Shown here one piece after another: positions 6,001 through 21,000 of a DNA stretch of 35,130 nt (positions within the stretch are counted from its first letter, which is position 1; every line of letters starts with the position of its first letter). Position numbers: made by a program. The DNA lies in IMG/VR virus record IMGVR_UViG_2740892229_000022; one strand, 5' to 3'. The stretch comes from a virus. Taxonomy: Duplodnaviria; Heunggongvirae; Uroviricota; Caudoviricetes.

Positions 6001-9000
6001 GTCACCCCGGCTTCCCCTCCCGTATCCACCGCCATGGCCATCAGACGCATGCGCACATCCGGATCAGAAGCCAGCGGCCATGTTTTATGGAACACATCCG
6101 TCAGCAACAAATCCCAGTCCTCCGGATATGCCGCCGGATCAACCGGCAGACTTTCACCGTTGGGACTGCAGCGCAGTGAATGCCGGATGTTGTAGCGATC
6201 AACAATCCAGCGTTCCCCCTGCTCTCCGTATCCGGTGATCTGCACAACAAAACGGCGATTTTTACCGCCCTGTACGTCAACCGTTGCCTCAATAAAACGC
6301 ACACCATCCGGCACAGATCGCCGGGGAAACGGCTCGGCACGCTGTTCAAGCAGTTCACTTTTACGCTGTTCCGTGGCTGAACGGGGCAGATAGGGTCGTC
6401 CGATATCGGTGTTCACCACCGCTTTCAGGGTCTCTTCACTGCCGGTTCGCTCATACTCTTCTTCTGCCGCCAGCAGTTTAAAAATCAGTTGTTCCCAGGT
6501 CTGAAACGCCGCAGCTGGCCCCTCCATCCAAAATGACGCAATCCGGGAGTTTCGTGGCGTTCCGGTGATACTGCCGTCCGCCGCCGCCCGTTCACCTTCA
6601 CGAAGCCAGATCCCCTGGTTATTCAGTTCGCGTTTCTGCTCAGGGGCAATCAGCCCGCGACAATGCGGACACATCAGACGGGCAGCCTGACCGGCAGCCA
6701 CAAAATCCGGGTTATTCCGGTATCCGGTCATGTTATCCATCACCGGCTGAAAATATTCCCCGCAGTGCGGACACGGCCAGTACCACCGGCGGCGGTCTCC
6801 CCGGTTATACAGTGACATGATACCCGTTGTTGGCGGTGCCTCATGTGCGCCACCACAACGCCATTTGGTATCGGTGATATCCCGCCCCGGTGAACTCTCG
6901 ACCAGGGTCATCCCCGAGGACATAAAGGTGGTGGTACGCTTTGAGGCCAGTGTGAAGGCATCCCCTTCCCCGTCCACGTTTTCAGGGAAACGGTCATAAT
7001 CCGTCAGCGCCACACGACGGTAATCCGAAGAGGAAAAGACGGTGATCGACGGCCAGCCAATCTTCAGGAAGGAGCCGTCAAGAAACATTTTATCGTGGAC
7101 GTTGTTGTCATTACGGGAAGGACTGAGGCGCTTGCTGACCTCCGGACTGTGGCGAAACGTCCTGGAAAGACGCGTTCTGGAATGCTCACGCGCCTTCGTC
7201 TCAGTCATCTGCACCACCAGCATATCCGCCGGATCACAGATGATGCCGTACACAATCCAGCCATCAATCAGCCCTTCGGTTTTCCCGGTTCGCGCAGGTC
7301 CCACAAACACCACCGCGTCATATTCACGGGCTGATAATGTATTAATGGGGTCAATCATATAGGGCGTCAGCGATGACTCCCACGGACCGGAAGTATTGGC
7401 TCCCCGTGGAACCCGCATATAACGCCTGATGGCTTCCGCTACTGGTAACCGGCTGGGTGGGCGAAACAGCGAGGCCACTTCGCGCCAGATATCGGATGCG
7501 CGGCTATGGCTCTCGTTCACCTGATTCACATATCGGCCTCATCACAACAGTCAATGACTGCCTTTTCCAGTGTATCGCGGATCTCATCAACCACAATCTG
7601 TACTTCATTCAGTTGTGATGCGGTCCACCCCCTGTCCCTTTCCAGCCGGTCAGGCCAGGTTTCCAGTACCTGAACTATCGCTTTCACCACGACAGAAAAG
7701 GACCGCCTGACATCACTGACTGGCACAAGCTGACCAGTTTCCTGCTCAAATTTCAGTCGGTCACGTTCTGACTGGTACCATGCTTTACGCGCATGAGGAT
7801 CCATTTCCTTGTTATCTACAGGCAGAGGAGCTTTCATCAGCTCGGCAAGAATATCTGTCAGTCGGTACAGTTTGAGATTGCTCTCATGACCACCGGCTGG
7901 GCTTATGTTTTTTACCCGAGCCGCAACAGTCTGTCGATGAGCACCGGATAATGCGGCCAGTTGGGAAATATTCAGATGCAGATTTTTTAATTCACGATCC
8001 ATAACCCCCCCCCTGAAAATTATGTAAACACACACCAGTGATGAACAAAAAACAACCAGATTCGACACTAAAAATTTTTATTTTTCTATATATCAATAAC
8101 TTACAATGGTGGTGATGGTGCCATAAAAATCAAAAAATGCGCCTTTTTCCGCGCCGCCCGCCCCGTGTTCAGGCCCACCCCACCAGGAGGACCCGCAAAA
8201 TGATAATGGTTATCATTTGCAACAAAATCCAGTTTCTTCCACCATCGCACCGGACTGGCGACTATGAGGGGACAACGCCGCGCTCCGTTAACGCGGTAAA
8301 CCCCGGTGTGTATCGTTTTTGATTATCCCCGCACACTCGCGCAGAGGAGTCTCCCTGTCGGGCTGCGGTCTCTGTTAATGCAGGAATACGGCGACAATAC
8401 CGCGCATGGATAATAAGGTCGCTCAACACACTGGCTGTAATGCAGCGGATACCATGCGGCATTTAGCGGCATTCATCGTACACTCAACGGTTAGCTCTTC
8501 ATTCGTGGCATTCACCTGAAAGGTCCTGGAGTGTAATTGCGTACATTTACCACTGAACGAACCTTCAACAAGAACACGACCACGCTGCAAAATACGGAAC
8601 GGAATTGTTCCCTGAAAAGGCTTTACGGTTACCAGTAATTTCTTCATGCATTCTCCGGATAACAAAAATACTAGTTAATACACTGAGTGCGGATATATTC
8701 CTGCGCCCCTTCCAGCTGCTTCTGCATCATCATCAACCGTTCTCTGAGGATGAAATAATCCCGTTCAGCGGTGTCTGCCAGTCGGGGGCNNNNNNNNNNC
8801 GTCAGCAGGGAACAGGCCCGTTTAAGAGTCACATCAGCCTCCTGAAAATAAAAAAACCGCCGGAGCGGTTCATGATGGTTACAGGGTGAACAGGGTTATA
8901 TGAAAAAAACCGCATATTCTTTCTTTTTCGGTTCCGGGTTGAGGGACATCAGGGAGACCGCATTGAACAGCGCCATCAGCGGGTCAATTTTTCCCCGTCC

Positions 9001-18000: not shown

Positions 18001-21000
18001 GACTGCCCCGCCAGAACCACAACAAAGTAATACTCCGGGTCTCTGGTGGCGCTGATTACTGTGCCTTCTCCATCCGACGGCTTCACCAACACAGGTGTGG
18101 TGACATCACCTTCCGCCGCAATGGCCTGCATCAGAGTATAAGGCGTGATGGCCACCGGGCTGCCAAATGGCTGCCACCCCTCCTTCAGTTTTTGTGTCAG
18201 CTTTTCCGCAAGGTCTGACGGCGACGCCGCCCTGACAACATCATAATGTTTANNNNNNNNNNCAACAGGTGTGCTCACATCACCTTCTGCGACAATCGCC
18301 TGAATAAGTGCTGCGCCATCATCCGTATACGAAGAAAACGGCCCGCCGTATGGTTGCCATCCTTCACGAATTTTTTGAGCAAGTGCATCAGCAAGGTCTG
18401 ACGGCGACACCGCCCTGACCACATCGTAGTGTTTAAATGCCATGAATCCTCCCGGCCGGGATAGTACTGAATCAGATAAAGAGCAGGCTGAAGTCCGGAA
18501 GTTACAGGACAATGGCAGAAGGGAGACTACAGCCCGCAATTCGAAAAAGGCCGCGCAGTTGCGCAGAGTGATTACTATGGGGTATTATTCGCCAGCTGAA
18601 ATATTACTTCACGTTTTATTGTTTATTCCTTGCCGCCCGCGTCTCCCAGCGCGGGCTTTTTTTTGTCCATAAGAAAGCCCCTCCGGAGAGGGGCTGAAGC
18701 CGCATTTCTGTATCACCATGAACATGGTGCCGGGTGCCTCCCGGTGAGTTCAGTCCGGTGTCCCTGAACCCGCGTATCTCGATCCAGATTGTCGTCAGAG
18801 ATGACACCTTATACACCAGTCGCCCCTCCGCACAGGGGGATTCACCATGCGAAATTTTTTTAACAAATGCTCAGTCTGACAGGCAACTGTCAACTGACTG
18901 AATTGTGACACAGATTACACTTGTTACCCACATACCACGAATCAGGTTATGCCTCAGTCATTATTAAACTGCACTTCAGCAAATCCGGAGCCTGATTCAC
19001 AGGTACTGGATTTGATTGTGACAGTCATTCCTGTCAACTGAGCACTTTGCAGTAGCGGTTGCAGATTCCAGCGACTGGTCCAGTATTCTTTCCCGGCTAC
19101 TTTTACTGTGAATGTATCGTTCTCATTATACTTGGAAAACTCAATTTTACCTTTAGCACAATCTGCCGCCATTGCATTAACAGAAACTAATGCAAATAAA
19201 ACCGCCATAAACATCTTCTTCATACTTAACTCCTTTATTCACCCGTTGTATATAAAGACTGTGACTTTCTGTTCAGAAACGCTGCTGCTGTATTACTTTC
19301 CCATAATGTATTGTTTATTTTTATAACGGGCCTGTCGCCAGTTATCTGACATTCTGGTTGACTCTCTTCATTCACAGCGCGAACAGAACGCGCCCCCTGA
19401 TGATGGCAATTCAGTATAACGGCCACAGTACCCAGTATCGCTGATATATTATTAAAGGATATTCTCCCCACTCTGACACCATCCTCTCCCCGATACTCCG
19501 GGAGCACATTGCTGATTCGCCCCCAGTTCAGAGTGAGGTCCACGTCTCCCGGCGTCATCGTATACACAGGAGCAGTTTCAGACAGTGCCTGACGAAATTC
19601 TCTCTGTATCTGCCTGAAGCGTAAGGCTTCTGCTGTGACAGTGACAAAACGCAGAACTGCTCTGGATGCATCTCTGGTCATTGTATTACCACTGAACTCC
19701 ATTAACGCCAGATATGATGAAACCAGTGAGTGACGACTGATTTGCATTCCGGAACGTTCCAGCGCTGCGACACGTTGCAGAGTGGTATAACTGCTGTCCG
19801 TTGTCATGGAAACCGTTGTCACACCGGGCACTGATATATGTGTAAAATCTGAAAAACGGTAGAAAGTATTTGTTGCCGTATTAACGAATCCGGCCACATA
19901 TAAATTATTTTGCTCAATAATCAGACGAAGATGGTCAAAACGCGCCTGATAGACATCAAGCCCTCGTATATCCACAGCAAAATAACTGCCCGGTGGGGTG
20001 TGGTTAATAACAGACACCGATGTGGTCCCCTGAGATATATGCTCAAGAGGAGTCGATATTTCTGTCCGTATACTATTTAACGAAGAGACATAACTTTGTT
20101 GAGTCGAAAAGTCTATCGTAAATTCCCGGGAATAGGATACCGAAGAAAAACCCAGTAACAGGCACAGTACCCATTTAAATAATATACACTTCATATACAG
20201 GTGTTCCTTTTGGCTGAAGTAATCAGCACCAGACCCGGCGCAGATATAAAAAAGGCCCGCAAAAGCGAGCCTGGTAAATAAATATGGCGCGTTGTACTGG
20301 ATTCGAACCAGTGACCGATTGCTTAGAAGGCAATTGCTCTGTCCGGCTGAGCTAACAACGCTGAATACCGATAATGGACCGCCATCGGGGGCTCGAACCC
20401 CGCGCAGCCAGCTTAGAAGGCTGGCGCTCTGTCCCGATGAGCTAATGGCGGTATGTGATATGGTGGCCCTTGCTGGATTTGAACCAGCGACCTGGCGATT
20501 ATGAGTCGCTCGCTCTCACCACTGAGCTAAAGGGCCGGGCGCAGGATAATAACGGTACGTAACTAATCCTGCAATATCATCCGTTCTGACTGGCTAAATC
20601 CTGAACTTCCCTGACCGTCTGCTCAAAACGTTCAGTCTCCAGCTCAACGCCAGTTGCACGACGCCCCAGCGCCAGTGCAGCTTTGACTGTCGAACCCGAC
20701 CCCATGAAAAAATCTGCAACCAGGTCACCCGGACGACTGCTCGCGCTGATTATCTGCTGCAGCATTTCTGCCGGTTTTTCGCACGGATGTTTCCCGGGAT
20801 AGTACTGCACCGGTTTATGCGTCCACACATCCGTGTACGGCACCTGCGCCGTCACGCCAAAATACCGCCGCAGATGCTTATATTCACTCTGCAGTTCCGC
20901 ATACTGCCGGTTCAGTGAAGTATACGTCTCCAGCAGCTGGTGGTGGGGCTTTTCCAGTTCACCGCGCTGATGCTTCTCTTCTGCCACCCGGGCAAACAGC

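Follow-up and report, generated by a model that had tools for sequence, protein, structure and literature searches.

The bacteriophage carrying the Shiga toxin 2d (Stx2d) genes of Escherichia coli O80:H2 has been described as an element of about 44 kb that occupies the yecE site of a chromosome in which about 12 prophage regions are found (PMC6256387, PMC9751135). Two records served as the main points of comparison in this study: the Escherichia phage ASU11 (ON416862.2), which was induced with mitomycin from E. coli O80:H2, and the Stx2 prophage at yecE in the finished genome of E. coli 2013C-4991 (NZ_CP027355.1). The gene order of the real Stx2d phage is int, early genes, Q, transfer RNA (tRNA) genes, stx2AB, nanS-p, S, R, Rz, cos, DUF1441, gpA terminase and portal. 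In this study, we report the analysis of the IMG/VR virus record IMGVR_UViG_2740892229_000022, a stretch of 35,130 nt (referred to in full as the window), in which the stx2 genes, a DUF1441/gpA packaging module and a second, unrelated packaging module stand on one strand, in blocks separated by runs of N. The arrangement of these blocks is artefactual, a product of assembly and not of biology. The host was a stx2d-positive E. coli, close to 2013C-4991 and to the O80:H2 host of ASU11. We put at about 0.93 the probability that the region is a scaffold written by a short-read de Bruijn assembler, using a word length (k) of 61, through a tangle of near-identical late regions of co-resident lambdoid prophages.

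The sequence-only reading of the window, made before this comparison, had held that it was not a reliable linear locus, and this was confirmed. None of the 5,426 finished (complete) E. coli genomes used as the comparison set held positions 7000-20300 in one place at a coverage of 80% or more, and in 2013C-4991 the corresponding sequences are distributed over five prophage regions.

Gaps, blocks and repeated flanks

Eight runs of N were present in the window, at 8790-8799, 11636-11645, 12833-12842, 13060-13069, 13356-13365, 14627-14636, 17471-17480 and 18253-18262. Each was exactly 10 N, as had been counted before, with one fixed conventional gap length used in 8/8 cases. They separate nine blocks, numbered here from left to right, with lengths of 8789, 2836, 1187, 217, 286, 1261, 2834, 772 and 16868 bp.

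Overlaps between flanks were sought by self-BLAST of the blocks and checked at base level. At the gap at 11636 (blocks 2/3), the flanks 11522-11635 and 11647-11760 are one and the same segment of 114 bp, with 1 mismatch. Flank repeats were also found at the gaps at 13060 (blocks 4/5; 105 bp, 6 mismatches), 14627 (blocks 6/7; 195 bp, 20 mismatches, 89.7% identity) and 17471 (blocks 7/8; 135 bp, 3 mismatches), and the E-values of these repeats, 4e-43 to 3e-72, are well past chance. Near-duplicate flanks had been claimed at these same four gaps, and the duplicates are there; their lengths are 105-195 bp and not the 114-230 bp given earlier, and the description "a few mismatches" understates the 20 found at 14627. 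Self-BLAST returned zero flank overlap at the gaps at 8790 and 12833.

The gaps at 13356 and 18253 had been interpreted as separating alternative branches, an interpretation that the alignments support. At the former, positions 13086-13270 of block 5 and 13366-13551 of block 6 (186 bp) are 95.2% identical, and the final 85 bp of block 5 diverge. At the latter, two versions of the nanS-p 5' end stand side by side (18091-18252 and 18265-18435) and are just 70% identical.

Collapsing the overlap at 11636 restored an intact HNH reading frame, and merging blocks 7 and 8 gave a nanS-p esterase frame of at least 642 aa; in finished genomes, the overlapping pieces also overlap in reference coordinates. 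The possibility that the N runs are plain 10-base masks in contiguous DNA was considered and rejected, given the overlaps of 105-195 bp between flanks and the different loci to which these map.

As written, the window places two unrelated packaging modules in series. The gap that separates them (8790..8799) joins the middle of the Rz gene in block 1 to the edge of an IS66-family insertion site in the capsid gene start in block 2, and the next gap (11636..11645) lies in the interior of the HNH gene. At the junction between the modules, a truncated Rz (last 39 codons) is set against the first ~33 bp of the capsid gene. An int or attachment site (att) boundary with intact genes on either side, such as tandem or nested prophages would have, was looked for at this junction, and no int or att was found there. 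The Rz-like gene in which block 1 had been said to end was verified: its 3' fragment (8672-8789, minus strand, 118 bp) is 90.7% identical to the Rz sequence at 13753-13870.

Origins of the blocks in a finished genome

The closest finished strain in the comparison set was E. coli 2013C-4991, which is near-identical, and the origins of the blocks were read by proxy from it. Neighbouring blocks of the window were found at distant loci of this genome, in five prophage regions, with identities of 99.9-100%.

Blocks 9 and 1 both belong to the yecE Stx2 prophage (0.60-0.63 Mb). Block 1 was 99.977% identical to it over all 8789 bp, and block 9 showed one difference (at 26356) over ~15 kb outside the integrase. 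Against ASU11, block 1 matched positions 15045-23789 with 1 mismatch and one 44-nt indel, and the match of the main part of block 9 was the same as to the yecE prophage. In ASU11, the sequence of block 1 is followed directly by the remainder of Rz and then by R, S, nanS-p and stx2, and an HNH/TerS/TerL module does not intervene. The corresponding order in the yecE Stx2 prophage of 2013C-4991 is stx2AB, esterase, holin, lysozyme, Rz, DUF1441, gpA terminase and portal. The true path is block 9, then ~3.6 kb running from nanS-p to Rz, then block 1.

The window does not reproduce this 3.6-kb segment faithfully, because blocks 6-8, which occupy its place, are foreign paralogues. Block 6 was identical (1261/1261, 100.000%) to positions 1287723-1288983, within the intR prophage at 1.29 Mb, and block 8 matched the same prophage at 771/772 positions (99.87%; locus L003, 23743-24514). 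To the Stx2 prophage copy, both were only 92.6% identical, the same figure being obtained for the Rz of block 6 against the Rz of the Stx2 prophage. The proposal that blocks 6-8 are the Stx2 phage's own lysis and esterase genes was rejected on these values. The intR-linked prophage itself continues into a classical lambda Nu1/A pair. The sequence-only reading had drawn a direct path from int through stx2 and the right-hand S-R-Rz blocks into block 1. The succession of Rz, cos, Nu1-like and gpA-like genes stands, since it is found in the yecE prophage and in ASU11. Two parts of that path need refinement: the right-hand S-R-Rz/nanS-p blocks are intR-prophage paralogues (blocks 6 and 8) or patchwork (block 7), and the int is of the mlrA type.

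The sequence from 8800 to 13355 had been attributed to other prophages, and each of the blocks concerned (block 5 for the most part) was traced to one. Block 2 was 99.894% identical (3 mismatches in 2836 bp) to 1553461-1556296, in a prophage at 1.55 Mb, as against 91.2% to the prophage at 0.25 Mb. Block 3 was identical (1187/1187) to 249507-250693, in the mlrA-site prophage at 0.25 Mb and on the opposite chromosome strand; its alignment with the 1.55 Mb prophage was confined to 447 bp (94.6%) and its last 86 bp (97.7%). The two blocks are joined via the 114-bp overlap, yet each fits the other's prophage far worse than its own. Block 4 was identical (217/217) to the nohA locus at 0.98 Mb (L006, 5001-5217). 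At the same locus, block 5 was identical from 13168 onward and carried 6 other alleles within 13076-13167.

In 2013C-4991 (L004, 6468-8999), the TerL-proximal capsid gene start is broken by a copy of ISEc23, an IS66-family insertion sequence (IS), with an 8-bp target duplication. The first base of block 2 (8800) corresponds to a position 2 nt past the end of this ISEc23 copy; it is therefore likely that this insertion is also present in the source strain and that the prophage concerned is defective.

A whole-region search suggested a different candidate, in which the HNH/TerS/TerL path from block 9 to block 2 is the true Stx2 phage. Blocks 9, 8, 7, 6, 3 and 2 are collinear with Stx2 phages of the HNH/Terminase_2/TerL type, for example the Stx2 prophage of OkiPb01697 (NZ_AP042583.1). 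The identity to this type is only 90-97%, however, whereas the same blocks are 99.9-100% identical to non-Stx prophages of 2013C-4991, and blocks 2 and 3 match two different ones. The candidate was rejected, and the resemblance to the OkiPb01697 type is modular lambdoid synteny, not true contiguity.

The graph signature and competing explanations

The ends of the blocks are placed with a precision of single bases. The right ends of blocks 2, 6 and 7 have exactly 60 bp in common with the next block, bounded by a mismatch; in block 2, these follow the single mismatch of the 114-bp overlap. The right ends of blocks 1, 3 and 8 lie exactly 60 bp past the last base that distinguishes them from paralogues in 2013C-4991, which for block 1 is the last difference from the Rz of the 0.25 Mb prophage and for block 8 the last difference from two other paralogues. 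Blocks 3, 5 and 8 start on a base that mismatches the preceding block, and the start of block 9 (18263) is the first base of divergence between the two nanS-p copies.

A de Bruijn graph with k = 61 was built from six loci of 2013C-4991, and the construction was repeated with the window's own blocks added. Exact merge nodes were found at 5/8 right ends with the 2013C-4991 loci and at 6/8 once the window was included, compared with 0.12-0.32% of internal positions (P ~3e-14). Among the left ends, 3/6 of those that could be tested were exact forks, and the left end of block 2 was at the IS edge. Block boundaries are thus found at branch nodes of the graph. Velvet-style scaffolds from short reads share this appearance, with fixed gaps, overlapping flanks, ends k-1 = 60 bp after variant bases and starts on variant bases.

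If the window was written by such an assembler, each block would be a path in the graph, starting at the first distinguishing base and ending k-1 = 60 bases past the last one. Blocks with a zero or negative estimated distance would have been juxtaposed with the minimum spacer of 10 N and left unmerged, and their flanks would repeat each other for this reason. By linearising the forks of the graph, the scaffolder would have put in a row sequences of five or more prophages that lie hundreds of kilobases apart, with the result that two packaging modules are seemingly in tandem. Inside the blocks, the path may hop between paralogues wherever more than k identical bases are shared, as would have happened in block 7, at the three single-nucleotide polymorphisms (SNPs) of block 2 and at the integrase end of block 9.

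The composition of the blocks was examined by painting, in which the window was scanned with 61-mers from the 2013C-4991 loci. All 61-mers of blocks 2, 3, 4 and 6 (100%), and 94-99.6% of those of blocks 1, 7, 8 and 9, were present in the prophage loci of this strain, and switches of type inside blocks occurred only through shared runs. The three mismatches of block 2 are alleles of the 0.25 Mb paralogue, the single substitution of block 1 is an allele of the 1.55 Mb paralogue, and in block 7 stretches of the intR-prophage type and of the yecE-prophage type follow one another in turn. Intact, block 7 was found in no finished genome, the best match being 98.9%. The 61-mers of its left end (14637-14792) are absent from the six loci, and this segment matched lysozyme genes in many O26 and O103 genomes at 100%. 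The left end of block 5 (13070-13167) has 61-mers that are likewise absent from the six loci. Additional prophage copies are the probable source of both segments.

At the right end of block 9 (33366-35130), the yecE-type Stx2d prophage gives way to an integrase of the mlrA(yehV)-site type, in a stretch that contains no N. This end was 99.8% identical to 224553-226283 of 2013C-4991, which adjoins mlrA and lies in the prophage that also holds block 3. The two prophages have an xis-int stretch of ~830 bp in common, with 6 SNPs, at which the alleles of the window alternate mlrA, yecE, mlrA within 700 bp; past this stretch the sequence is 100% that of the mlrA(yehV)-site integrase. The Int protein of the window differs from the yecE Int at 74 residues. 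Both yecE-type SNPs in its gene are synonymous, and the protein is therefore the same as the mlrA-site Int of 2013C-4991. That it is a unique hybrid protein was considered and dropped, as the protein is the common mlrA-site Int. The junction 32700-34700 was found in none of the finished genomes, with a best full-length match of 92.9% and a highest near-full-length identity of 93.7% among the matches listed. The integrase end probably makes block 9 a chimera, and we infer that the switch arose by path-switching of the assembler or by bubble collapse.

The alternative that fares best, although we consider it unlikely, is that the patchwork within blocks (block 7, the paralogue alleles of blocks 1 and 2 and the mlrA-type int) represents real gene conversion or recombination between co-resident prophages. 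Long identical stretches of co-resident lambdoid prophages permit homologous exchange, and the xis-int stretch described above is one of them. Block 8 also carries a yecE-type allele at 18048, 41 bp from intR-type sequence, and the resulting 61-mers (18029-18089) are absent from 2013C-4991, so this allele cannot have been produced by simple path-switching in the graph; its source is a genuine SNP, a small tract of conversion or an error in the consensus. However, nearly all of the differences are paralogue alleles reached via shared runs of at least 61 bp, as bubble collapse or path choice would give, and the alternation of alleles in the xis-int stretch would require several independent conversions. 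The lack of block 7 as a whole, and of the int junction, from the finished genomes also speaks against real exchange, as do the reports that place the Stx2d phage of O80:H2 at yecE (PMC6256387, PMC9751135). A broader version, slightly less probable again, is that the Stx2d phage of the source strain truly exchanged its integrase for the mlrA(yehV) type by recombination with a co-resident prophage in the ~830-bp xis-int stretch and thereby acquired a new chromosomal site, the patchwork of paralogue alleles in blocks 7, 1 and 2 being partly real gene conversion.

More doubtful than either is an artefact of another kind, in which a reference Stx phage or genome was used post hoc to order separately assembled contigs, which were then strung into a pseudomolecule with 10-N spacers between them. 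Spacers of 10 N are a common manual convention, blocks 9 to 2 stand in the order of an HNH/TerS/TerL-type Stx2 phage, and the overlaps agree in reference coordinates. The right-hand blocks, however, start at the first distinguishing base and lack the k-1 prefix of stand-alone contig FASTA records, which argues for scaffolding inside the assembler and against later reference-guided concatenation. In addition, the alternative branches in blocks 4, 5 and 6 are written in series, and block 1 is misplaced for such a reference, its cos/Rz end mapping between blocks 3 and 6.

That the written order is real, as a composite or nested prophage with two tandem packaging modules, genuine short duplications and Ns hiding a few bases, is very improbable: although prophage-in-prophage and tandem Stx prophages occur in E. 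coli (PMC8112680), and blocks 2-9 are collinear with the OkiPb01697 type, the junctions lie within genes (Rz, HNH, lysozyme, esterase, capsid start) and not at att/int boundaries, single genes are restored by collapsing the flank repeats, the blocks are 99.9-100% identical to different prophages of 2013C-4991, their ends fall on k = 61 graph nodes beyond chance, and the arrangement is seen in no finished genome, nor does the induced phage ASU11 have a second module.

Several points weigh against the scaffold made by an assembler, which we nevertheless prefer. Every block has been assigned through 2013C-4991, a close relative of the source strain and not that strain itself, so that the origins given here would be those of its nearest finished counterpart. 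Lambdoid prophages recombine in nature, and the patchwork seen in block 7, in the paralogue alleles of blocks 1 and 2 and in the mlrA-type int could be partly real, with true gene conversion perhaps behind a minority of it. In the graph of the six loci of 2013C-4991, the ends of blocks 4 and 5 and the starts of blocks 2, 4 and 6 did not appear as branch points. The 61-mers at 14637-14792 in block 7, at 13070-13167 in block 5 and around 18048 in block 8, together with the SNP at 26356, are not explained by the loci of 2013C-4991. Finally, Velvet writes gaps shorter than 10 bp as 10 N according to its manual, a rule that could not be documented in a literature search; the identity of the assembler is something that we infer, as is the origin of the within-block patchwork in the assembler and not in biology.

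Gene content and comparison with known Stx2 phages

Genes are mostly on the minus strand across the window. Block 1 (1..8789, minus) is the true late region of the Stx2d prophage and contains, besides the Rz 3' fragment, the cos region, terminases, the portal, and head and tail genes. Its DUF1441 Nu1-like small terminase gene (7526-8068; Pfam DUF1441), its gene for a gpA-type large terminase of 707 aa (5406-7529; Pfam GpA_ATPase/GpA_nuclease) and its lambda-type portal gene (3695-5197; Pfam Phage_portal_2) are all on the minus strand. A C9 homopolymer at 8005-8013 (C8 in 2013C-4991) was observed 2 nt upstream of the annotated DUF1441 start codon. A cos-proximal stretch of 44 nt (8127-8170) is present in the window and in 2013C-4991 and missing from the ASU11 record.

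Block 2 (8800..11635, minus) holds the second packaging module, from a different prophage, with a TerL of 553 aa (8896-10557, minus; Pfam TerL_ATPase/TerL_nuclease), a TerS (10554-11117, minus; Pfam Terminase_2) and the 3' part of the HNH endonuclease gene. The 5' part of the latter is in block 3 (11646..12832, minus), together with part of the cos-proximal region of the mlrA-site prophage, a YlcI/YnfO gene on the plus strand (11939-12139) and a TonB-family gene (12271-12612). Blocks 4 (12843-13059) and 5 (13070-13355), both minus, are short variants of cos and the Nu1 start from one or more Qin-like nohA loci, and are alternative branches to the left end of block 6.

Block 6 (13366..14626, minus), the intR-prophage paralogue, contains the cos region, Rz (13752-14219, minus; Pfam Phage_lysis) with an embedded Rz1-like open reading frame (ORF), and the 3' end of a lysozyme gene. 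Block 7 (14637..17470, minus) is a patchwork contig with holin, DUF826, DUF1378 and lysozyme genes, the lysozyme R gene lying at 14744-15277 (minus), and with the 3' 430 codons of a nanS-p esterase gene (16177-17469, minus). Block 8 (17481..18252, minus) is the 5' part of the nanS-p (SASA/DUF6645) esterase gene of the intR-prophage paralogue.

The main part of block 9 (18263..33365, minus) is the early and toxin region of the Stx2d prophage, with methyltransferase, Q, replication and immunity genes. It begins with the first ~181 nt of the phage's own nanS-p (18263-18443, minus), followed by stx2B (18954-19223, minus) and stx2A (19235-20194, minus). The Stx2 A subunit encoded in the 18954-20194 region has the C-terminus ...SQSLYTTGE, which is the mucus-activatable Stx2d tail and fits the literature on O80:H2. 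As other Stx phages do, the block carries three tRNA genes immediately upstream of stx2A (20285-20536; tRNA-Arg, tRNA-Arg and tRNA-Met/Ile2): two are Arg-tct and the third has a CAT anticodon and is annotated as Ile in records of the Prokaryotic Genome Annotation Pipeline (PGAP). The right end of the block (33366..35130, plus) comprises the shared xis-int 5' stretch (~33366-34139) and then the mlrA(yehV)-site integrase, with an int ORF at 33844-35130.

Taken at face value, the window implies three things that are almost certainly false: tandem packaging modules in an Stx2d prophage, duplicated gene fragments, and an mlrA-type integrase. The value of the analysis is as a quality-control warning for the annotation of Stx prophages from short-read drafts. 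Chains of this kind can be recognised by N runs of fixed length, by overlapping flanks and by block ends that lie k-1 bases past paralogue-specific positions. Even contigs free of N can switch from one prophage to another at more than k identical shared bases in drafts of prophage-rich Shiga toxin-producing E. coli (STEC). Short-read annotations of Stx prophages should be split at N runs, and combinations of modules should be regarded as unproven until confirmed by long reads.

The window still correctly reports the presence in the strain of an ASU11-like Stx2d phage, the phage type of the clinically important O80:H2 lineage. Its blocks 1 and 9 have the same toxin genes, tRNAs, Q region and DUF1441/gpA/lambda-portal packaging and head module as ASU11 and the yecE prophage, to which the named entries vB_EcoS_ULI-O80_Stx2d and the RDEx444 yecE prophage are comparable. 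As in an intact Stx2d prophage, stx2AB is located downstream of Q and the tRNAs and is followed by nanS-p and a lysis cassette. The differences are three. In the real phage, Rz leads directly into cos and DUF1441, whereas the window interposes ~9.5 kb of foreign blocks, with blocks 2-5 separating block 1 from the nanS-p-S-R-Rz genes that should be contiguous with its DUF1441/gpA module. The phage's own 3.6-kb nanS-p-to-Rz segment is replaced in the window by paralogues of 92-95% identity. Lastly, the integrase is of the yecE type in the real phage and of the mlrA type in the window.

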